The position numbers and the translations under genes were made by a program. Shown piece by piece: positions 1-8,351 of a stretch of 58,088 bases of DNA. Each line of letters begins with the position of its first letter. Within the stretch, counting starts at the first letter, position 1. The DNA is from Candidatus Desulfatibia profunda (GTDB lineage Bacteria; Desulfobacterota; Desulfobacteria; Desulfobacterales; UBA11574): positions 1 through 58,088 of the forward strand of contig JACNJH010000207.1 of assembly GCA_014382665.1 (NCBI GenBank), written 5' to 3'. The notes below the pieces were generated by a model, which saw nothing but the letters and a program-made list of their open reading frames with translations, was not told the origin of the DNA and made no database searches.

Positions 1-232
1 ATAAAACAATTAAAGGAATTGCAATTAATTTCACAAACTGTTATTACAATTTATCTAAATTAATCAAATAATTTAAATAGATTAGAAATTGTAATATTAA
101 TTTGCAAATATAAAGTTTCTATTTATATATAGATAACGAATTTGTGGTACTAATATTGCGTAAAAAATATTAAAGTTTTAGGAAAATTTTCCGAAATTAT
201 TTAAACAGCTAACAATTTTTGTTAAAAAGTTC

Positions 233-260
233 TTGACAATATAAACTCTAATGATAAACT
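233..260 (+). promoter_or_regulatory. sigma70-type promoter upstream of the structured RNA units and NYN gene
   Basis: TTGACA (233-238), 16-nt spacer, TG-n-TAAACT (255-260, extended -10); predicted start ~266-270, just before unit 1. Confidence 0.6.
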
Positions 261-272
261 TATTAATACTTT

Positions 273-328
273 AGAATACCCTCTGGCGTTGTCCCACCAC
301 AAGGCGTGAGTGGATAAACAACGTCAGA
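273..328 (+). ncRNA. structured RNA unit 1 (AGAATACCC + hairpin)
   Basis: TCTGGCGTTGT pairs with ACAACGTCAGA (one G-U); inner CCAC/GTGG and CAC/GTG stems; homologous to unit 2. Confidence 0.55.
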
Positions 329-351
329 TTAGTATATTAAAAGACAATTTG

Positions 352-413
352 AGAATACCCCATGGCGTTAACCCAACACATAGTAAATGTGAGTTGGGGC
401 CTTGACGTCATGG
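352..413 (+). ncRNA. structured RNA unit 2 (AGAATACCC + hairpin)
   Basis: CCATGGCGTTAA pairs with TTGACGTCATGG (two G-U); inner CCCAA/TTGGG and CACAT/ATGTG; compensatory changes relative to unit 1. Confidence 0.55.
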
Positions 414-420
414 TAGAAAT

Positions 421-458
421 AACAAAAAATCACCAGAATCTGGTGATTTTTTGTTTTT
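421..458 (+). terminator. intrinsic terminator-like hairpin between the RNA units and NYN
   Basis: perfect 17-bp inverted repeat AACAAAAAATCACCAGA / TCTGGTGATTTTTTGTT followed by T run. Confidence 0.75.
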
Positions 459-470
459 GGAGGTGTAAAT

Positions 471-1016
471 ATGGAAAAGGTTTCTGTTTTTATTGATGGG
501 GGCTATCTGGATCATATAATCCAGGATATTGGCAAAAAAGTTGACTATTCAAAGTTGGCAAGGAAATTGTGTGGAAGCGATAATTTTATGCGTGCCTATT
601 ATTATCATTGCCTTCCATACCAAAGCGATCCTCCAACAGAAGAAGAGAAAACTCGCTTTAGTAAAGCAAGCGCTTTTTTTGACCGGCTAAAAAGATTGGA
701 TAGATTCCAGATTCGTTTAGGAAAGTTGGCAAAAAGAGGCAATTATTCAGATGGAAATCCTATACTTATTCAAAAAAGAGTAGATGTTTATCTTGCAACC
801 GATCTTGTAAAATTTAGCGCACGAAAAGGAATGGATCAAGCGGTATTGCTTACCTCTGATAGTGACTACGTCCCCGCAATTGCAGCTTCAAAAGAATTTG
901 GAGTGATTGTAAAATTGGCATATTATGACAATCTTTCTATAAACCAAGAGTTGCTTGATGCATGTGATGAAAGGTTTTCTTTTTCAGCAAGCTTTTTCGA
1001 TGATATTTTAAGATAA
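471..1016 (+). CDS. NYN domain (LabA/DUF88, PIN-like) ribonuclease
   Basis: FIDGGY, QKRVDVYLATD and LTSDSDYVPAI acidic motifs; GGAGGT RBS; AT-rich. Confidence 0.9.
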   Translation: MEKVSVFIDGGYLDHIIQDIGKKVDYSKLARKLCGSDNFMRAYYYHCLPYQSDPPTEEEKTRFSKASAFFDRLKRLDRFQIRLGKLAKRGNYSDGNPILIQKRVDVYLATDLVKFSARKGMDQAVLLTSDSDYVPAIAASKEFGVIVKLAYYDNLSINQELLDACDERFSFSASFFDDILR

Positions 1017-1064
1017 AAAAGCTTTGAAAAAGCGGGCCGCCCATCAATTATAACATTCTTGTAT

Positions 1065-1226
1065 TTATTTCCGGCGAACTTCATCCAGCCAGTTGTCTAA
1101 CTTTTGGCGATATTCTGTATAATCGGTTTCCCTGCTGCAATGTTTGCAGGCAACTATATCTAAACCGCCATGCGCGACAATATCAGCCGTGTTACCGCAA
1201 AAGATGCAGACAATCTCCTTACTCAC
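1065..1226 (-). CDS. 53-aa zinc-ribbon protein (not in ORF track)
   Basis: GTG start overlaps IHF stop (GTGAGTAA); MSKEIVCIFCGNTADIVAHGGLDIVACKHCSRETDYTEYRQKLDNWLDEVRRK has two CxxC pairs. Confidence 0.6.
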   Translation of the reverse strand: MSKEIVCIFCGNTADIVAHGGLDIVACKHCSRETDYTEYRQKLDNWLDEVRRK

Positions 1227-1503
1227 CGTTAATCAAGCCTCTTAATTTCCCGGAGCATTTGAATATAACAATCCGCCGCGGCCTAAGCATCATATCATCG
1301 CCGGTGGCGGGATTGCGGCCTTTGCGCTGCTTTTTATCTTTTACGCAGAATTTGCCGAATCTGCTGATCATTACATCCTCCCCGGATGCCAGGGTCTTTT
1401 TCATGATTCCAAGCAGGGTTTCAACCGCTTTGCCGGATTGTTTATCGTCTAATCCGCTATTTTCGCTGATTTCTTCAACAATTTTCGCCTTGGTAAGTGT
1501 CAT
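1219..1503 (-). CDS. ihfA: integration host factor alpha-like / HU family DNA-binding protein
   Basis: MTLTKAKIVE...FGKFCV...RKGRNPATG motifs. Confidence 0.85.
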   Translation of the reverse strand: MTLTKAKIVEEISENSGLDDKQSGKAVETLLGIMKKTLASGEDVMISRFGKFCVKDKKQRKGRNPATGDDMMLRPRRIVIFKCSGKLRGLINGE

Positions 1504-1682
1504 ATTTGGTCCTTTGCGTGCTTTGTGCCTTCGCGTGAGACTATAAATTTGCGATTCGGTATGCCCCGCCCCGGTTGAGAATGAGAGTCAAAATGAAATA
1601 TCCGAATAATTTCAAAAAAATAGATATACAATTCTTTTCCAGAGGTCAAGACTGAATTTCATGTCAAATAGATACCACCATT

Positions 1683-1898
1683 CTATCGTTGATTAACGAT
1701 CCGCCTGATTTGGCGGACCGACATGCCCCAGCGCAGGGCCAGTTCATTGTGGTTGTGGCCTGTGAACTGGTTGCGGATGCGACGATTTCGTTCTTCGAGC
1801 TCCAGTTCTTTGATGGTCGGAATGGTGATGCGTATGCCGCCCAGCTCCTCGAACAGCCCTCGCTGAATGGCAAGTCCTGAAGCCGCTCCAAAAGGGTG
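1683..1898 (-). pseudogene. Mor/C-family transcription activator reading frame without a clear start
   Basis: frame reads ...LFEELGGIRITIPTIKELELEERNRRIRNQFTGHNHNELALRWGMSVRQIRRIVNQR*; in frame directly after the GIY-YIG TGA. Confidence 0.65.
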
Positions 1899-2147
1899 TC
1901 ATAGATGTTTTTTAGCAAAGGCCCGGCCTGAATGGGATTTGAGATACTTTTCGAATTTTGCAGCTTTTTCGCGGGAACGAAACCCTATGGCTGTTTCAAT
2001 TTTCCAAGGGCGATATTTGGAGGTGTGAGCAACTTGACCGTTGTTATGGGCTTTAAGTCTGGATTCCAGATTTTTCGTAAGCCCTGTGTAGTGGTGAGAT
2101 TCGTTTGTTTCACTGGCTAAAATGTAAACATAATAAAATTCGTTCAA
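1899..2147 (-). CDS. small standalone GIY-YIG nuclease
   Basis: YYVYIL...HHYTGLT...RLKAHN...FEKYLKSHSGRAF; TTG start. Confidence 0.85.
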   Translation of the reverse strand: MNEFYYVYILASETNESHHYTGLTKNLESRLKAHNNGQVAHTSKYRPWKIETAIGFRSREKAAKFEKYLKSHSGRAFAKKHL

Positions 2148-2165
2148 GCCATTGACTCTCCGTTG

Positions 2166-2710
2166 GCTTGCCAGCTCCGCCGTGGCAGTCTTCGTTCTTC
2201 ACTGCGTTTCGAACGAAGGATTCTTTATCTGGCTTGCCAAGGCGTAGTTCGAAACGCTTTTAGGGTTGTTATAGTGTAGCCCGGCTTCGCTTGCCAGCTT
2301 CGCCGTGGCAGTCTTCGTTCTTCACTGCGTTTCGAACGAAGGATTCTTTATCTGGCTTGCCAAGGCGTAGTTCGAAACGCTTTTAGGGTTGTTATAGTGT
2401 AGCCCGGCTTCGCTTGCCAGCTTCGCCGTGGCAGTCTTCGTTCTTCACTGCGTTTCGAACGAAGGATTCTTTATCTGGCTTGCCAAGGCGTAGTTCGAAA
2501 CGCTTTTAGGGTTGTTATAGTGTAGCCCGGCTTCGCTTGCCAGCTTCGCCGTGGCAGTCTTCGTTCTTCACTGCGTTTCGAACGAAGGATTCTTTATCTG
2601 GCTTGCCAAGGCGTAGTTCGAAACGCTTTTAGGGTTGTTATAGTGTAGCCCGGCTTCGCTTGCCAGCTTCGCCGTGGCAGTCTTCGTTCTTCACTGCGTT
2701 TCGAACGAAG
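2166..2710. repeat. tandem array of ~4.4 x 123-bp palindrome-rich units
   Basis: GCCGTGGCAG recurs at 2179, 2302, 2425, 2548, 2671; units identical by eye except one base in the leftmost copy and the array ends. Confidence 0.95.
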
Positions 2711-2712
2711 AC

Positions 2713-3068
2713 TGGTGGAGGCGGCGGGAGTCGAACCCGCGTCCGGAAATCTTCCGCACAAGCTTCTACATACTTATCCTGAATTTTGGCATTCGCCTTT
2801 TCAAGTCTCCTCCAGGCGCGATACTTGAAAGGCTATCCCGTAAGATGGTTCGCCGGTCCGGTAACAGGATTTAGGGACCGGCTATCCTGCTTGTCGACGC
2901 CCTTGCCGGATTAGCAGGAATGGTCCAACAGGGCGTTAGCCATTAAGCGGCTAATGCGTAGCTATAATCGTCTGCGATTATGTTTAGTTTCCCACCGTTT
3001 TTACAAGCTGGCAGGCGCTTGGTATGCAACTTGAGCTTCTTTATCCCCGTCGAAGCCGTTTCGCCCCC
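2713..3068 (-). ncRNA. ssrA: tmRNA
   Basis: 5' GGGGGCGAAACGGCTTCGACGGGG; 3' GGTTCGACTCCCGCCGCCTCCACCA; tag frame ADDYSYALAA* at 2975-2943; next to smpB. Confidence 0.97.
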
Positions 3069-3190
3069 ATATTGTGAAAGAACATTTTACCCAAGCCGAG
3101 CGTTTTAAATTATAGACTTGAAAATCGCTCAATTTGGGTTTTATTTAATATTGATATTAATCCACTTGCAAAGAGATGTCAATGTTTACC

Positions 3191-3652
3191 TTATTTATAT
3201 TCTTTTTTGGACCTTTCCAAGTCCCGTTCCTGATCGCGCCTTCTGATGGATTCACGCTTGTCATACTTGCGTTTACCTTTGGCAAGGGCCAGGGTCAGTT
3301 TGACCTTTCCACTTTGAAAATAAACCTTTAGGGGGATCAGGGAGTACCCCTTTTCATTGACCTTGGCGTAGAGCTTGTTGATTTCATATTTATGCAAGAG
3401 CAGCTTTTTTCTTCTTAAGGAATCATGATTATCATAAGACGCAAAGGGATAGGGACCGATGTGCATCTGGTAAACAAACACCTCTCCGTGTTTTATCCTG
3501 GCATAGGCATCCTTAAGGTTGACGCGGCCGAGCCGTAAGGATTTGACTTCGGTTCCCAGCAGAACCATCCCCGCCTCGTAAACATCCTCGATAGAATAGT
3601 TATGCCGGGCTTTTCTGTTTTCAGCGACGATCTTTATATGGCTTGAATTCAA
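3191..3652 (-). CDS. smpB: SsrA-binding protein
   Basis: NRKARHNY, GTEVKSLR, RKKLLLHK, GKRKYDKRE. Confidence 0.97.
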   Translation of the reverse strand: MNSSHIKIVAENRKARHNYSIEDVYEAGMVLLGTEVKSLRLGRVNLKDAYARIKHGEVFVYQMHIGPYPFASYDNHDSLRRKKLLLHKYEINKLYAKVNEKGYSLIPLKVYFQSGKVKLTLALAKGKRKYDKRESIRRRDQERDLERSKKEYK

Positions 3653-3696
3653 AAGGTATTATCCCCTAATTGACGACATTAATCAGTTGACCAATT

Positions 3697-5466
3697 TTAT
3701 CTTGAGGTAAATAGTTTGTCGGAAAGAATACGGCCGTAATTTTCCTGCACCAGCTCCATGATGCCTTTGGTCGAGGTTTTCTTTAGAACTTCCTTTAACA
3801 GGGAGCGGGCCTCTGTTACCGAAAGAGATCGTATCATTTTCTTGGCCGCCGGTATGGATTGCGGGTTCATGCTCAAATTTTCCATCCCCAATCCTAAAAG
3901 GATCGGCAGATTGATCGGGTCCCCGGCCATTTCACCGCACATAAAGACATTGATACCGGTATCTTTGGCCACATCGGCAACATGTTTGACCATGCGGATG
4001 ATAGCAGGATGCAGTGGTTGATACAGATGGGCAACCTTCTTGTTCACCCTATCCACCGCGAGGGAAAACTGAATCAGATCGTTGGTGCCGATACTGAAAA
4101 AATCAACATCTTTTGCCATTACATCCGCCAGGATCGCTGCTGAAGGAACCTCGATCATAATTCCGACTTCGATCTCCGGGTCAAAATCGACACCTTCCTT
4201 TTCCAGAGAAGTTGCCGCCTCTTTCAAAATCCTTTTGGCCTCAAGAATTTCTTCATGACATGAGATCATGGGAAGCAAAATCCTGACATGGCCGTACGCA
4301 GAGGCCCTTAAGATGGCCCGCAATTGAGTCTTGAATATATCGGGTTTTTGCAGGCAGTAGCGAATACCGCGCAGCCCTAAAACGGGATTGGTCTCGTCGG
4401 AATTCGATGTGAAGGAAGCCGCTTTATCACCGTCGATATCGAGCGTTCGAATCGTTACCGGCCGGGGCGTCATGACCTCGACGACATCTTTGTATTTATC
4501 AAAGAGCTCGTGTTCACTGGGAAAATCAGGCCTGCTCAAATATTGAAACTCCGTCCGGTAAAGGCCGATGCCGTCTCCGCCGTAGGCCATAACCGATACA
4601 ACCTCTTCCGGAAGCTCGATGTTGCCCATCACCTGCAGCAACACACCGTCCAGGGTCTCTGCCGGCAGATGACTTTCTCGCGAAATAACCGCTTTATGCG
4701 CTTCATACTCGGCCTTGCGTTCTTCGAACCGGATCAGGGTCTGGTCGGTGGGATTAATAATAACAATCCCGGAGGTGCCGTCCACAATGATGATGTCATC
4801 GTTTTTAATAATGCGGGTTGCGTTATCAAGGCCCAGAACCGCAGGAATCTCAAGGGTACGGGCAATGATGCCGGTGTGTGATGTCTTGCCGCCGCGATCG
4901 GTGACAAAGCCCATGACCTTTTCCAGTTGAATCTGGCTGGTCTCTGCGGGAGAAAGGTCAAAAGCAACCAGGATGACACGTTTGTTGATCGAAGCGATAC
5001 TCTCGGCTTCGGCTCCGACCAGATTCCGCATAATACTCTCCGATACATGGCCGATGTCGTCAGCCCGACTCCGCAGGTAAGGATCGGTCATATTGCTGAA
5101 CATCGATTTTAGGTCCGATACCGCCATTTTGAGTGCCCATTCGGCATTGAGCTGCTCATTTTCGATGGTCTCGATTGTCCGTCCATACAGCATCTTGTCT
5201 TTGAAAAGCACCATATGGGACTCAAGAATGTGGGCATGCTGGCGCAGGTCCTCGGGTGTTTGTTCAATGATGGATTGAAGCTCGTCTTTGGCTTTCTTTA
5301 CAGCGGCCTTGAAACGTTTTATTTCGTCTTTTATACTCGTTTCACTGACAAAATATTTCTCGACAACGTCCACACCTTCCCTGCCGACCAGATATGCTTT
5401 TCCGATACATACACCCGGTGAGGCAGCGATGCCATGGAGTTGTATTTCTTTGTCGTCGGTATTCAT
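3697..5466 (-). CDS. ptsI: PTS enzyme I (PEP-protein phosphotransferase)
   Basis: GGKTSHTGI phospho-His motif, GLYRTEF, NPVLGLRGIR, FSIGTNDL, CGEMAG. Confidence 0.95.
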   Translation of the reverse strand: MNTDDKEIQLHGIAASPGVCIGKAYLVGREGVDVVEKYFVSETSIKDEIKRFKAAVKKAKDELQSIIEQTPEDLRQHAHILESHMVLFKDKMLYGRTIETIENEQLNAEWALKMAVSDLKSMFSNMTDPYLRSRADDIGHVSESIMRNLVGAEAESIASINKRVILVAFDLSPAETSQIQLEKVMGFVTDRGGKTSHTGIIARTLEIPAVLGLDNATRIIKNDDIIIVDGTSGIVIINPTDQTLIRFEERKAEYEAHKAVISRESHLPAETLDGVLLQVMGNIELPEEVVSVMAYGGDGIGLYRTEFQYLSRPDFPSEHELFDKYKDVVEVMTPRPVTIRTLDIDGDKAASFTSNSDETNPVLGLRGIRYCLQKPDIFKTQLRAILRASAYGHVRILLPMISCHEEILEAKRILKEAATSLEKEGVDFDPEIEVGIMIEVPSAAILADVMAKDVDFFSIGTNDLIQFSLAVDRVNKKVAHLYQPLHPAIIRMVKHVADVAKDTGINVFMCGEMAGDPINLPILLGLGMENLSMNPQSIPAAKKMIRSLSVTEARSLLKEVLKKTSTKGIMELVQENYGRILSDKLFTSR

Positions 5467-5475
5467 AATATCGGT

Positions 5476-5757
5476 TTACTCCTCGAAACCTTTTTCAACG
5501 AGTTTCACAAGATCGTTCAATTTTTCAAGATCCGCGCGATCGTTAATTTTTATTGTTATCTTCGAACCCTGCACACAGACCAGCGTGAGGATGTCGATAA
5601 TGCGCGAGGCATCGGCTTTGGTATCGTCCTTTATAATCCAGATATTTGATTTGGCGTTTTGGACACATTTTGCAATTTTTGCTGCCGCCCTGGCATGCAA
5701 ACCAAGCGTGTTAACGATGACAACCTCCCTGGTGAGTTCCTTATCCAAGCCGTCCAT
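5476..5757 (-). CDS. ptsH: phosphocarrier HPr
   Basis: NTLGLHARAA (His15 motif); directly upstream of ptsI. Confidence 0.9.
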   Translation of the reverse strand: MDGLDKELTREVVIVNTLGLHARAAAKIAKCVQNAKSNIWIIKDDTKADASRIIDILTLVCVQGSKITIKINDRADLEKLNDLVKLVEKGFEE

Positions 5758-6170
5758 AGCATACGTTTTATTTTGATATTCCGCCCGGATACCATGTCAC
5801 GGTAATTCCAGAAGCCTGATACGTTGTGTTTTTTAGCACATTTTCTGGGCAGTCTTCATGAAATATTCGGGATAAAATACAACCCTAATTGAGCGTAAAC
5901 CAATCGGATCTTTCGGCATCCTCGACTTTCGCTCAACCAAGGTGCAACCATGAAGTTTCCGGATGGGAACCGATGACAAAAAACGAAAAATTTTTGACGG
6001 AAAATATAAATTTTTTATCAACCTCCTTTGTATTTGTCAATCTGTAATCATTGACAAAAGATAGAATAGCTGTTAAAAATTTTATTTTTGAATATTACAT
6101 ACAACATCTTGAAATTGCAACAAATTATTTTTGTGTGTTTCAAACGATCGCCAGAGCAGGGAGAAAAAAC

Positions 6171-6398
6171 ATGAAGGAAAAAATAGTGATTTACGGCAAG
6201 GATACCTGACCCTATACAACTGAGGCTCGTGAAGCTTTTGCCCAAAAAGGCCGGAAAGTGGAATATTATGATGTGCGCCTTGATGCCGGCAGGATGGACG
6301 CTATGCTGAAATATTCCGACGGCGTGCGTAAGGTTCCGGTCATTGTTGACCAGGGCAAGGTCACCATTGGATTTAACGGCAAAACATGAGGGGTTTAG
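6171..6398 (+). CDS. glutaredoxin-like UXX-star selenoprotein with two Sec (not in ORF track)
   Basis: MKEKIVIYGKDT-TGA(6207)-PYTT...VPVIVDQGKVTIGFNGKT-TGA(6387)-GV-TAG; GGGAG RBS; Trx-fold UxxT and C-terminal UGV*. Confidence 0.8.
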
Positions 6399-6403
6399 GT
6401 AGA

Positions 6404-6420
6404 TTCGGCTGGAGGCCGAA
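6404..6420 (+). promoter_or_regulatory. candidate bacterial SECIS hairpin for the second UGA
   Basis: TTCGGC-TGGAG-GCCGAA, 14 nt after TGA 6387-6389, with a G-rich loop. Confidence 0.5.
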
Positions 6421-6502
6421 CTGTTACCATCCATAAAAGGCTCTTTTTCCGATTTATGAATTGGAAACAATACTATTTGATTACCAAAGAAAAGGGAAGA
6501 CT

Positions 6503-7162
6503 GTGAACAGATTGGAAAAACAATTTTTGATTGACGAATTCAAAATCGGAGAAGCCTGGCGGCTGTTCAAAATCATGGGAGAATTTGTTGAAGGGATCGA
6601 TACACTCCATGAAATAGGTCCTGCCGTGACTTTCTTCGGTTCTGCCAGAATAAAACCCCGTGATCCGATATATAAAAAAACCGAAGAAATCGCAGCGCTT
6701 TTTGCCAAAAACGACTTCGCCGTCATCACCGGCGGGGGTGGGGGTGTTATGGAGGCTGCCAACAAAGGGGCTGCCGAGGCGGGGGGGACTTCCGTTGGGC
6801 TGAATATTCTGCTGCCGTTTGAGCAAAAACCGAACCAATATGCCAATATTAAACTCGATTTCAAATACTTTTTTATCCGCAAGGTCATGTTTATTAAATA
6901 TGCCACCGCCTACATTATCATGCCCGGTGGCTTCGGTACCCTGGATGAGCTTTTTGAGGCCGTAACGCTGATTCAAACCCAACGAATCAGACCGTTTCCG
7001 CTGATTTTGGTCGGTTCCGACTACTGGAGAGGGCTGATCGACTGGATTAAATCTTATTTGCTTGCAGAAAAACGGATATCACCGAAAGATCTCGATATCC
7101 TGCAGGTCATGGATGATACTGAAGAAATATTCAAGGCGGTGCAAAAAGTGGTGATTCTTTAA
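6503..7162 (+). CDS. LOG family (Rossmann-fold) nucleotide phosphoribohydrolase
   Basis: TGGGGGVMEAANKGA, FFIRKVMF, PGGFGTLDE; likely GTG start at 6503 (track starts 6461). Confidence 0.9.
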   Translation: MNRLEKQFLIDEFKIGEAWRLFKIMGEFVEGIDTLHEIGPAVTFFGSARIKPRDPIYKKTEEIAALFAKNDFAVITGGGGGVMEAANKGAAEAGGTSVGLNILLPFEQKPNQYANIKLDFKYFFIRKVMFIKYATAYIIMPGGFGTLDELFEAVTLIQTQRIRPFPLILVGSDYWRGLIDWIKSYLLAEKRISPKDLDILQVMDDTEEIFKAVQKVVIL

Positions 7163-7163
7163 A

Positions 7164-7236
7164 TTTGAATTCCCCGCTGCTTGTCGAAGCGGAGCGTAGA
7201 TCCCGCCAGATCGGGGCAGCGCGGGATGAATTCAAA
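7164..7236. repeat. REP-like palindromic element
   Basis: TTTGAATTC-CCCGCTGC ... GCAGCGCGGG-ATGAATTCAAA; a related CCGCAGC-CTAT-GCTGCGG lies at 7294-7311. Confidence 0.55.
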
Positions 7237-7529
7237 TAAAAGATAGTAACCTCTTTAAGGCGAAAGTGCGGTTAGCCTTTCGCCAAACTGATCCCGCAGC
7301 CTATGCTGCGGAAGTTTCATAAAATCGTAACACGATTTTATTTCTCTTGATTAATAGGAAATATTTTACAATAATACGTTACGATAAGTGAATGATATTC
7401 AGAAAATTATTAAGATACAGAGTCAAGTTTGGCCGGCTGGTAATTATTAAGATCTTCGGATCTCTTTTTTTTGTGAACTCGTTGGCCGCCGGAAGTCTGG
7501 TGCGTTCGTGAAAAGGAAGGCAGAGGATA

Positions 7530-8351
7530 TTGGGAGTATCTGGTGAAACTAAAACGCGAGACGTTCTCCTGGAGTTCGAAGACATTCACATGAGCTTTGG
7601 GAAGGTTCTTGCGCTGGCCGGCGTGAACCTGAAAATCAGAAAAGGGGAGATTCATTCCGTGATCGGGCCCAACGGTGCCGGCAAGACGGTAATGATGAAC
7701 TGTGTCAACGGTCTTTACAGGCCGCAGCAGGGAAGTATTTATTATAAAAAGCAAAAGATTAATAAACTCAAACCTTACCAGCGGGCTATGCTGGGAATTG
7801 CCCGAACGTTTCAAAAAGTTGAAGTTTTTGGCGGTATGACCGTGCTCGACAACATCCGCCTGGGTCGTCATATCCATTATAAATTCGGCGTTATCAGCGG
7901 ATCATGGTATGCCGGCAAAACCGCCCGGGAAGAAATTAAGCATCGCAGCTTTATCGAAGAAGAAATTATAGATCTTCTGGAGATCGAACATATTCGCCAC
8001 AAACCGGTCGGGATGTTGCCGTACGGCTTGCAAAAACGCGTCGAACTGGGCCGGGCCCTGGCCCTGGAGCCTGAACTTCTGATCCTTGATGAACCCCTGG
8101 CGGGCCTCAATCTCGAAGAGGTCGAAGACATGGCCAGATTCATACTAGACATCAATGAAGAAGAGCGCTGGAAGATTACCTGCCTTCTTGTCGAGCACGA
8201 TATGGGCGTGGTGATGGACCTTTCCGATCGTGTTTTTGTGCTCAATTTCGGCAACATGATCATAGACGGCACGCCCGATGAGGTTCAGAATCATCCCGAG
8301 GTGATCAAAGCCTATCTGGGGGAAGAGGATCTGTATGCCACACGCAGATAA
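7530..8351 (+). CDS. branched-chain-type ABC transporter ATPase (LivG-like)
   Basis: GPNGAGKT, LPYGLQKR, LILDEP, LVEHD; start uncertain. Confidence 0.92.
   Translation: MGVSGETKTRDVLLEFEDIHMSFGKVLALAGVNLKIRKGEIHSVIGPNGAGKTVMMNCVNGLYRPQQGSIYYKKQKINKLKPYQRAMLGIARTFQKVEVFGGMTVLDNIRLGRHIHYKFGVISGSWYAGKTAREEIKHRSFIEEEIIDLLEIEHIRHKPVGMLPYGLQKRVELGRALALEPELLILDEPLAGLNLEEVEDMARFILDINEEERWKITCLLVEHDMGVVMDLSDRVFVLNFGNMIIDGTPDEVQNHPEVIKAYLGEEDLYATRR

Follow-up and report, generated by a model that had tools for sequence, protein, structure and literature searches.

A tandem leader array joins the tmRNA gene to a small GIY-YIG gene

The stretch analyzed here (the window) is an entire 58-kb contig, C197 (58,088 nucleotides), of a metagenome-assembled genome (MAG) of Candidatus Desulfatibia profunda that was assembled from short reads into 293 contigs. 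On its minus strand, the transfer-messenger RNA (tmRNA) gene is followed by a tandem array of noncoding units and by a gene for an 82-residue GIY-YIG nuclease (Table 1). We refer to the repeated unit as the leader and to a leader with its nuclease gene as the cassette. The CCA at the 3′ end of the tmRNA gene (positions 2715 to 2713) abuts the cassette, and the TTG start codon of the 82-residue open reading frame (ORF) lies 18 nt beyond the end of the array. TRF reported only this array in the whole window, with a period of 123, 4.4 copies, 99% matches, and no indels. The array as called begins two bases past the CCA, and these bases are G1 and T2 of the first unit. The initial annotation of this DNA, made from the sequence alone, had described about 4.4 near-identical 123-bp units behind the tmRNA CCA in the orientation of the GIY-YIG gene, a local pairing (GTCTTCGTTC/GAACGAAGAC) with a long-range alternative (GTTCGAAACG/CGTTTCGAAC), and no variable spacers; on all of these points the two analyses agree.

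Read on the minus strand, the array has the layout A(BA)4, in which A is 53 nt and B is 70 nt. A consists of the hairpin GTCTTCGTTC..GAACGAAGAC followed by TGCCACGGCGAAGCTGGCAAG, that is, the P1 hairpin and the start of the P2 hairpin. B starts at CGAAGCCGGGC and, past a variable stretch, reaches CGTTTCGAACTACGCCTTGGCAAGCCAG and ATAAAGAATCC; it comprises the rest of the leader and a remnant of a ribosome-binding site. The three internal units are identical, and the ORF-proximal unit has one mismatch. In the complete unit next to the tmRNA gene, G1 (position 2712) lies directly past the CCA, P1 is formed by 2712 to 2706 with 2686 to 2680, the pseudoknot strand X (2705 to 2697) pairs with X′′ (2625 to 2617), the P2/P3 hairpin occupies 2678 to 2648, and the final box ACTACGCCTTGGCAAGCCAG occupies 2617 to 2598. 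The terminal unit is internally deleted: its P1 hairpin and P2 start are joined via a shared TGGCAAGC to the final box, after which the ribosome-binding region AACGGAGAGTCAATGGC follows. The same layout is present at locus L046 of the cassette family described below. A coding repeat was considered, as 123 nt would correspond to 41 codons, and was rejected; stops occur in every frame of each unit and no ORF spans the array.

Between the tmRNA 3′ end and the stop codon of the GIY-YIG gene, a scan of the minus strand found no promoter-like and no terminator-like sites. Apart from a weaker promoter match (9/12) within the tmRNA gene itself (3006 to 2977), the only minus-strand site upstream of the tmRNA gene and the cassette is the sigma-70-like promoter ahead of the tmRNA gene. 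The nuclease mRNA therefore probably stems from read-through of transcription that starts at the tmRNA promoter.

Table 1. Features of the tmRNA-proximal part of the window
Feature	Position	Strand	Basis and remarks
Tandem leader array	2166-2710	-	TRF; unit comparison; within-genome BLAST
Leader unit 1, complete	2596-2712	-	Covariance model R1, 107.9 bits, E = 3e-29
Leader unit 2	2473-2589	-	R1, 95.8 bits; P1 weakened, first 2-3 nt replaced
Leader unit 3	2350-2466	-	R1, 95.8 bits
Leader unit 4	2227-2343	-	R1, 95.8 bits
Terminal, internally deleted unit	2148-2220	-	Sequence reading; weak R1 match (25.6 bits) at 2102-2220
GIY-YIG nuclease gene, 82 aa, TTG start	1899-2147	-	PF01541, E = 3.5e-16
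tmRNA gene (ssrA)	2713-3068	-	ARAGORN; Rfam RF00023, 183.4 bits; tag ADDYSYALAA
Mor-family gene fragment, 5′-truncated	1686-1898	-	PF08765, E = 2.3e-16, profile positions 32-94 of 107
Predicted sigma-70-like promoter, TTGACA-17-TAATAT, upstream of tmRNA	3154-3182	-	Consensus scan, 10/12
smpB	3652-3191	-	Upstream of tmRNA

The leader has a conserved, covarying fold

The fold of the leader was derived from an alignment (A1) of 46 single-unit leaders, 103 to 124 nt long, from which the covariance model R1 was built. Unit 1 of the window is one of the 46 training sequences, and there is some circularity in its score; the remaining 45 sequences are independent. P1 (7 bp) is paired in 94.7% of cases and changes on both sides, with pair 2-35 being U-A in 23 leaders, G-C in 15, and C-G in 3. 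The strand X, just inside P1, forms a 9-bp pairing with X′′ about 100 nt downstream, and all nine pairs change on both sides (pair 12-120 is A-U 14, G-C 14, and C-G 13 times). P2 (7 bp plus one bulge) is 99.1% paired, and its pair 41-87 is C-G in 29, U-A in 14, and A-U in 3. P3 is a variable hairpin, with a conserved G-W-A-G / C-G-A-A-G internal loop closing it. The leader ends in a final box (consensus ACTACGCC..GGCARGCC), with a short final hairpin inside the box ACTACGCCYYGGCARGCCA. Because X:X′′ crosses P2, the fold is pseudoknotted. None of 500 shuffles attained the observed pairing values, and sliding the partners by 1 to 3 columns reduced pairing from 90% to 26 to 43%.

An alternative pairing, Y:Y′′, joins the 5′ strand of P2 to the final box. 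It is mutually exclusive with P2 and is also supported by covariation, the “bulged” base 43 covarying with column 133 (A-U 24, C-G 8, and G-C 5). In L043, L055, L058, L065, and other loci, the architecture is permuted, and P1 encloses an X hairpin and a Y′′ hairpin. In the window, the four R1-matched units (95.8 to 107.9 bits) have P1, X:X′′, P2/P3 with the GWAG/CGAAG loop, and the final box. Rfam 15 holds no family for the leader: in searches of positions 1 to 8000 at E ≤ 1 and of positions 2120 to 2730 at E ≤ 10, tmRNA was the sole match.

The nuclease is a bare GIY-YIG domain

The GIY-YIG domain (PF01541) spans residues 5 to 75 of the 82-residue protein, which contains nothing else. The protein is Slx1/UPF0213-like, the group to which Escherichia coli YhbQ also belongs as a UPF0213 or prokaryotic Slx1-like protein, and its best Protein Data Bank matches are 1zg2 (the UPF0213 protein BH0048, E = 2e-5), which has the same minimal domain, and Slx1. 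In an alignment of 76 proteins, YVY, YTG, R, HN, and FEKYLKSHSGR are conserved in ≥90% of the sequences; this conservation of the hallmark residues indicates that the catalytic set is intact. The length is exactly 82 residues in 72 of the 76 relatives, and the window ORF carries the ..FEKYLKSHSGRAF.. C terminus of the cassette family. Among 1.84 billion protein representatives, the protein family comprises 1,070 clusters (50% identity) at E ≤ 1e-10 and 5,024 at E ≤ 1e-3. Many of the representatives P0002 to P0150 are 100 to 135 residues long, with a match that begins at residue 25 to 55; gene callers appear to extend such ORFs upstream into the stop-free leader. The stand-alone GIY-YIG proteins of 80 to 100 residues (UPF0213/Slx1-like), of which the Ssn nucleases discussed below are one branch, form a very large family, and literature searches did not find an agreed function for them.

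Leader and nuclease gene form a cassette docked on tRNA and tmRNA genes

The leader of about 115 nt and the 82-residue Slx1/UPF0213-type GIY-YIG gene make up a cassette of about 0.4 kb that is docked on the 3′ ends of tRNA and tmRNA genes in many phyla. A search of one genome per species returned at least 466 stretches encoding relatives of the window protein, and the best 80 were analyzed; the cassette family is defined here from these 80 loci and is not a published family. Their proteins share 54 to 81% amino acid identity with that of the window, and they come from Desulfobacterota, Planctomycetota, Verrucomicrobiota, Cloacimonadota, Ignavibacteriota/Bacteroidota, Acidobacteriota, Nitrospirota, Omnitrophota, Gammaproteobacteria, and others. 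ARAGORN identified an RNA gene upstream on the same strand at 62 of the 80 loci. It was a tmRNA gene in 36 and a tRNA gene in 26 (Ala 9, Pro 8, Val 3, Leu 2, and Cys, Lys, Ser, and Met 1 each), so that nine different RNA genes carry the cassette behind them. P1 of the leader starts at the first nucleotide past the annotated RNA 3′ end in 53 of these 62 loci and within 5 nt of it in 7 more. Where the CCA is not encoded, as in Planctomycetota, the leader begins past the discriminator base. At the other 18 loci, a tRNA-like 3′ end lies just ahead of the leader in 9, and most of the rest are cut by contig ends. A single leader copy is the usual state of the family.

A second cassette is present in the same genome. 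A BLAST search with the unit found one partial copy on contig C264, directly past the CCA of tRNA-Pro(UGG), followed by a paralogous GIY-YIG gene that is 60% identical to the window gene. R1 likewise placed the leader at two sites only in this genome, namely, C197 (four units of 96 to 108 bits and the truncated one) and C264 (one unit, 92 bits). The downstream neighbor of the tRNA-Pro cassette is a variable type I restriction-modification locus. In the same-order relatives G037, G010, and G007, a leader and gene also lie behind tRNA-Pro(UGG). The association of the unit with GIY-YIG genes and tRNA/tmRNA 3′ ends elsewhere, which the initial annotation had put forward as a check, is thus borne out by the C264 copy and by the 80 loci. 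Our literature searches found no paper on tRNA-linked small GIY-YIG genes, and the papers searched on UPF0213/Slx1-like proteins describe no link to tRNA ends or to a leader.

Several loci depart from this plan. In L101 and L111 (Verrucomicrobiota, tRNA-Leu-UAA), the 3′ portion of the tRNA, comprising the T arm, acceptor strand, and CCA, is duplicated ahead of the leader. The additional leader copies of L111 each have ..TCTAACCA in front of them, apparently what is left of the end of a deleted GIY-YIG ORF, joined to CCA. L055 and L077 have no tRNA ahead of the leader; instead, ..AATGGACGCCGCC(CA) is found in an AT-rich setting, and it looks like a collapsed fragment of a tmRNA 3′ end (GGACGC..CGCC..CCA). 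A small GIY-YIG gene of another subfamily, with an internal TAA, occurs on C81 of the present genome (20202 to 20750) behind tRNA-Pro(GGG) and an intrinsic terminator. It is followed by about four copies of a short tandem repeat, GTGCGCCTCTGGAGCGCTT, and a remnant with its C-terminal motif RKWLDKLE is found again behind the cassettes in G037 and G036.

The array is present in metagenome runs from four studies

In the Logan contigs of three public metagenome runs from three studies, a 153-nt unitig of the repeat is present. Since 153 equals 123 plus 30 (the period plus k − 1 in a 31-mer graph), this is the signature of a collapsed perfect 123-bp tandem repeat. The depth of the unitig was 302 versus 80 to 86 for the flanking contigs in one run, 20.5 versus 5.7 to 6.8 in another, and 44 versus 12 to 19 in the third, giving ratios to the unique flanks of 3.5 to 3.8, 3.0 to 3.6, and 2.3 to 3.8. 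In a fourth run, from a fourth study, a 147-nt piece had a depth of 60 versus 21 to 28 (2.1 to 2.9 times). One of the four runs may be the source sample of the window. The multiplicity predicted from the assembled array is 4.09. The unit is thus present at roughly two to four copies in the sampled populations, and the number is possibly variable.

These depths bear on the explanation that the array is an assembly artifact, that is, a single unit that was over-collapsed or over-expanded, a concern that the initial annotation had raised. The MAG derives from short reads in 293 contigs, and a 31-mer graph cannot span exact 123-bp repeats. Yet the cyclic unitig exceeds both flanks in each of the three runs, as does the piece in the fourth, and other assemblies hold homologous arrays. 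The excess depth of the unit over its flanks in four runs argues that the array is not an artifact, and we regard an artifactual origin as extremely improbable.

Leader arrays have arisen repeatedly

Tandem leader units recur in other lineages, as expected if the element expands its repeat, which the initial annotation had proposed. Arrays were found in G024 (120 bp, 3.1 copies), L115 (123 bp, 2.8 copies), L081 (119 bp, 2.3 copies), L051 (110 bp, 2.2 copies), L064 (124 bp, 1.9 copies), and L057 (155 bp, 1.8 copies), and in L086 the whole cassette is repeated 2.2 times. The 4.4-copy array of the window is the largest amplification among the loci examined. In G024, which belongs to another genus of the same family, the tmRNA 3′ end is followed by the homologous 120-bp units, which are 96% uniform, and the GIY-YIG gene is reduced to its last ten codons; no nuclease gene was detectable in the G024 genome.

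The layouts of relatives suggest how such arrays originate. The leader-ORF-leader arrangement is a common state: a second leader copy lies just past the stop codon in L117, L095, L110, L096, L091, L090, L102, and L111, and the copy in L117 is almost the same as the first one from P1 position 10 on, the ribosome-binding region included. In L046, L040, and L052, the nearest tmRNA-linked relatives of the window, a full leader is followed by a second P1 hairpin just ahead of the ORF, corresponding to A-B-A. Two direct copies of A suffice for unequal recombination or slippage to yield A(BA)n. The internal units of the window each keep the ribosome-binding remnant ATAAAGAAT (compare AGGAAAGAAT in relatives) and restart at P1 position 3-4, and the same boundary is found in G024, L081, L057, and L094; in all five arrays, it falls between GNC and TTCG. 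The internal deletion of the ORF-proximal unit lies between the TGGCAAGC of P3 and the copy of this octamer in the final box, and L046 has an analogous deletion with different end points. The identity of three units indicates that expansion or homogenization was recent. We conclude that the array is very probably a local tandem amplification of the cassette leader.

The central hairpin also occurs as a dispersed repeat

The central hairpin of the leader, CCCGGCGTAGCC-N3-4-GGCGAAGCCTGGG (the P2/P3 module), is found by itself in tandem on three other contigs of this genome: seven times with a period of 42 on C48 (1934 to 2212), six times with a period of 34 on C102 (27 to 224, cut by the contig start), and three times with a period of about 40 nt on C145 (14390 to 14495). 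Further P2/P3-type copies lie at C135:18567 and C266:9742. The pattern CGGCGYAG-N3-20-CGAAGCC has 22 matches in this genome, compared to 1 for a control pattern, and mostly 0 or 1 in relatives, with 8 in G052 and 6 in G020. None of the separate arrays or copies adjoins a tRNA or GIY-YIG gene. The central hairpin thus behaves as a dispersed repeat of the repetitive extragenic palindrome (REP) type in this genome, in keeping with the REP-like character that had been suggested for the unit.

Small hairpins are also found within leaders. Copies of 28 to 36 nt, all beginning with CTTG, lie inside leader loops of L057, L054, L102, L047, and L041. Comparison with the closest hairpin-free leaders places the insertion sites at GGCGT^AGCTG (L057 against L054/L059) and GAACT^ACGCC (L054 against L059), which generalize to W^AG or CT^AC. 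Judged by their sequences, these mini-hairpins look like tiny self-inserting elements, and their sites may mark cuts by the nuclease.

Other repeats accompany these hairpins. A conserved sequence of about 100 nt, AAGTGTGTAAAAACTACACA...TTTTGTAAC...AATAATTTCCCTTG, lies behind each of the copies on C48, C102, and C266; the ORF listing was uninformative about genes beside the hairpin arrays on these three contigs. Four near-identical longer repeats (C17:8802, C227:25, C260:6998, and C270:6292) contain CTTGTCCGGCGTAGCTCGAAGAGCGAAGCC, which continues as CTGAAGCTGAAAGCGAAGCC in all copies except that on C270 and is the same mini-hairpin as the L057 leader insert. On C17 and C260, the repeat reaches about 150 nt further upstream (TTTTTCACGAG..GGGCGTCTCAAGCTCGCCCGACTTGTTGGGTCGT).

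The region behind the tmRNA gene is variable among relatives

What follows the tmRNA 3′ end is hypervariable among relatives of this family and order and can be an integrase-type island, a plain terminator, or a GIY-YIG cassette with one of several leader types. A homologue was found at E ≤ 1e-8 in 18 of 61 relatives; few of these have it at the tmRNA site. Remnants of older GIY-YIG 3′ ends lie downstream of the present cassette in G037, G036, and G024. In the window, a Mor-family fragment that corresponds to the C-terminal two-thirds of the protein and has no start codon of its own runs on in frame behind the GIY-YIG stop codon. The 5′ truncation of the Mor gene behind the ORF indicates that the cassette displaced the 5′ part of an older gene. 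On the basis of its sequence, the fragment is probably the remnant of a Mu-like or island gene.

An integrase-borne genomic island at the tmRNA gene was considered and rejected, as the window contains neither a tyrosine integrase nor a direct repeat of the tmRNA 3′ end. No integrase is encoded between positions 1 and 2713, and no second copy of the tmRNA 3′ end is present in the window; the contig ends 1.9 kb beyond the ORF, and a distant attR is possible. Elsewhere in the window, an NYN-domain gene (PF01936) occupies positions 471 to 1016, and hairpins upstream of it weakly match IS128 RNA on both strands (417 to 458, E of about 0.003 to 0.01).

Comparison with known nuclease-associated repeats

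The Ssn family of nucleases, with its SRM/NTS hairpin repeats, was characterized only in 2025 (Chenal et al. 2025, PMC11893778). SsnA of Neisseria meningitidis is a 94-residue single-domain GIY-YIG protein that binds its hairpin repeat as single-stranded DNA (ssDNA) only, cuts a few nucleotides upstream of the hairpin, and ignores RNA and double-stranded DNA; its gene is flanked by the repeats (PMC11893778). Both systems pair a single-domain GIY-YIG protein of 80 to 95 residues lacking a DNA-binding domain with one-orientation hairpin repeats that flank the gene and that spread and cluster in the genome. The SRM-gene-SRM arrangement resembles the leader-ORF-leader state of L117, L095, and others, and the position cut by SsnA, a few nucleotides 5′ of the bound hairpin, would correspond here to the junction of tRNA and cassette. 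In contrast to the Ssn repeats, the repeat unit here is a 115-nt multihelix module with a pseudoknot, located at the +1 position of tRNA/tmRNA ends. The published SRM motif (HGTCWYN(0-2)YYVSBRHN(0-5)WNVSBRGN(0-2)RNCYNB) matches none of 54 leaders and has 25 matches in this genome versus 13 to 16 in shuffles, there are about 22 dispersed hairpin copies here versus hundreds of NTS copies, and the Ssn paper does not mention tRNA (PMC11893778). Agreement with SsnA at the protein level is limited to the size, the single-domain nature, and the spacing of Y, Y, and E. The comparison accordingly concerns a putative likeness in how the two systems work; a place for the cassette protein beside SsnA in the clade cd10448 (GIY-YIG_unchar_3) is conjectural.

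Other systems share single features with the cassette. Seg proteins are more than 200 residues long, with an N-terminal GIY-YIG domain and a C-terminal DNA-binding domain, and cut double-stranded target DNA. In REP/RAYT and IS200/IS605 elements, short hairpin repeats that function as ssDNA belong with a single nuclease gene and gather into arrays. Elements of the IS200/IS605 type insert just 3′ of a short fixed target, and base pairing within their own ends sets the cut sites. Docking at CCA and the long-range pairings X:X′′ and Y:Y′′ parallel this last feature. No terminal cleavage sites are defined for the cassette, unlike for IS200/IS605, and where REP/RAYT systems employ an HUH/Y1 transposase with covalent intermediates, the cassette has a GIY-YIG gene, whose type of enzyme forms none. 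The free-standing GIY-YIG genes of T-even phages, such as SegB in the tRNA cluster of T4/T6, are likewise selfish, patchy in distribution, and located among tRNA genes (PMC13096335), and the sporadic presence at a fixed site among close relatives that characterizes Seg-type genes is also found here. Unlike Seg proteins, the cassette protein is a bare 82-residue catalytic domain of the Slx1/UPF0213 branch without a C-terminal DNA-binding domain; a structured leader, for its part, is absent from Seg genes. SegB is reported to promote segmental amplification of antidefense loci, its cleavage driving tandem amplification of neighboring DNA (PMC13096335), which by analogy offers a possible precedent for nuclease-stimulated arrays. 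Theta ribozymes (Kienbeck et al. 2024, PMC10879173) share a structure at the tRNA 3′ end, P1 at G1, and a strand within P1 that pairs far downstream. They differ in that the leader has no Rfam match of the hepatitis delta virus (HDV) type, no conserved P3/L3/P1.1 core, and no J4/2 cytosine; in place of J4/2, it has a long variable linker, and its conserved nucleotides lie in P1, the P2 hairpin, and the 3′ box.

Weighing the explanations

Whether the leader acts as DNA or as RNA can be approached through its base pairs. Constraint on RNA alone should tolerate G-U and reject A-C, whereas constraint on a DNA hairpin or on both strands should not. The helices are nearly all Watson-Crick: of 1,372 pairing cells, 28 are G-U and 38 A-C, and the nested helices alone have 11 G-U (1.4%) and 8 A-C, compared to about 6% G-U in ARAGORN-bracketed tRNA stems from this genome and the 80 loci. 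The few mismatched cells make this argument a hint, not proof. Together, the lack of a G-U excess, the free-standing P2/P3 hairpin, and the hairpins inserted in loops point to the DNA level and match how DNA repeats of the REP/SRM type behave. In metatranscriptome contigs, which show no RNA read ends, the ORF is present in two runs and the repeat unitig in two runs. The array and ORF have depths of 3 to 38 versus 10^4 to 10^5 for the tmRNA, with the array 10^3- to 10^4-fold lower, and there is no sign in these contigs of an abundant unit-length RNA. In one run, the repeat unitig is about five times deeper than the adjacent smpB-side contig, which is roughly the array copy number. A 217-nt ORF contig with adapters at both ends is probably a single amplified fragment and was not used to locate a 5′ end.

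The strongest competing explanation is that the leader works as an RNA cotranscribed with the tmRNA or tRNA, be it a trailer, cleaved by itself or by the nuclease, that frees the tRNA and the GIY-YIG mRNA, a structured 5′ untranslated region that would stabilize the ORF mRNA and control its translation, or a protein-bound RNA, several units of which the array would place on each transcript. The element begins at +1 past the CCA (or past the discriminator base), neither terminator nor promoter separates the tmRNA from the ORF, the start codon lies 0 to 30 nt past the final box, often without a Shine-Dalgarno sequence, both array and ORF RNA are detectable, and the Y:Y′ and Y:Y′′ alternatives both show double changes, as a switch would. 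The topology, with P1, an enclosed strand that pairs far downstream, and a large hairpin, also resembles a nested pseudoknot, and HDV-like theta ribozymes adjoin phage tRNAs (PMC10879173). An HDV-like ribozyme, for which this topology fits, was nevertheless rejected: the P3/L3/P1.1 core is absent and its expected segment variable (columns 17 to 29 vary and often pair with X, and the linker ahead of X′′ consists of 20 to 30 variable nt), many members extend P1 to a perfect 15-bp hairpin, and no Rfam model, the HDV-like ones included, matches even at E ≤ 10. Against RNA function in general stand the base-pair counts given above, the tandem and dispersed copies of the central hairpin far from any tRNA or GIY-YIG gene, and the low level of array RNA, which is comparable to neighboring DNA or mRNA background. 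We consider an RNA role unlikely, though a serious contender. The specific proposal of the initial annotation, an RNA processed into nuclease-bound units, is not supported: a single copy is the norm, covariation is almost only of the Watson-Crick kind with no G-U excess, unit RNAs show no sign of accumulating in the metatranscriptome contigs, and SsnA acts on ssDNA, not RNA (PMC11893778). A type III toxin-antitoxin-like or CRISPR-like RNA array serving the nuclease is suggested by noncoding tandem repeats directly upstream of a nuclease gene in the same orientation. Such an arrangement is contradicted by the single unit present at most loci and fits poorly with the lack of variable spacers and of a terminator between repeats and gene (in contrast to ToxIN-like systems) and with a GIY-YIG DNA-nuclease fold in place of a ToxN/AbiE-type endoRNase toxin or a Cas protein, and we give it very little credence.

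Alternatively, the cassette may be immobile, a domesticated small nuclease gene that is inherited vertically, often lost, and expressed from tRNA promoters, with the array a neutral duplication unlinked to the nuclease. A 2006 phylogenomic study held prokaryotic Slx1-like proteins (the UPF0213 group) to be mostly vertically inherited repair enzymes (PMC1564403), slippage expands tandem repeats without any enzyme, and G024 retains an array without the gene. This explanation is hard to reconcile with 55 to 81% amino acid identity spanning Desulfobacterota, Planctomycetota, Verrucomicrobiota, Cloacimonadota, Ignavibacteriota, Acidobacteriota, and Gammaproteobacteria, with nine different host RNA genes, with presence in 18 of 61 relatives and few at the tmRNA site, and with the truncated Mor gene and the stacked remnants of earlier copies; we judge it quite improbable.

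On balance, we lean toward a selfish cassette whose DNA hairpins are its nuclease's own sites and whose array arose by unequal recombination. The cassette would be a horizontally moving, homing-type element, expressed by read-through from a strong RNA-gene promoter, and the conserved RNA gene would serve as a homology anchor in moves between genomes. Its helices would act as ssDNA hairpins that are recognized and nicked by the cassette's own nuclease, as in the SsnA/SRM model. From an ancestral A-B-A layout like that of L046 and L040, unequal recombination or replication slippage between the copies of A would have produced A(BA)4, possibly stimulated by nicks at the hairpins, and recombination between TGGCAAGC in P3 and in the final box would have trimmed the ORF-proximal unit. 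Other than providing additional nuclease sites, the extra copies are probably without a function. The initial annotation's picture of a REP-like, nuclease-associated element at tRNA/tmRNA ends that expands its repeat thus largely stands, given the 80 loci and the recurrent arrays; active targeting of tRNA ends is its conjectural part.

Several points weigh against a selfish cassette acting through DNA hairpins. The ssDNA specificity of its nuclease would be borrowed from SsnA, with which the common ground is the GIY-YIG fold, and the leaders do not match the SRM motif. A 115-nt pseudoknotted fold behind a very strong promoter also fits a functional RNA, and the comparison of G-U with A-C draws on few cells. 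The G024 array persists without a detectable nuclease gene, so the nuclease is not needed for array maintenance. No pair of empty and filled sites with both flanks conserved, which would define insertion boundaries and any target duplication, was obtained, and a GIY-YIG nuclease alone is incapable of strand transfer.

Implications

A bolder and doubtful, if possible, reading is that leader and nuclease together make up a minimal mobile element, autonomous and about 0.4 kb in size, of a new class. In such an element, a bare GIY-YIG domain would be aimed by base pairing within the element's own DNA (X:X′′ and Y:Y′′) and by hairpin recognition, and would nick ssDNA at the end of heavily transcribed tRNA/tmRNA genes, between CCA and G or between GNC and TTCG. 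Repair would then copy in a cassette, hairpin, or leader, yielding serial self-insertion, leader arrays, and REP-like spread of the hairpin. If this is true, specificity lies largely in the DNA fold, not in the protein, and might be reprogrammable.

A 115-nt module that is conserved and covaries accompanies a whole nuclease subfamily, and its address is fixed at the last base of a tRNA or tmRNA gene; this provides a concrete substrate for study of the subfamily. The 4.4-copy array is a natural construct on which to locate binding and cutting by the nuclease and to ask whether nicks promote expansion of the repeat. In annotation, the 3′ flanks of tRNA and tmRNA genes are commonly interpreted as integrase attachment sites and nothing else. 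The cassette family also suggests that many “hypothetical nuclease” genes beside tRNAs are selfish cassettes.

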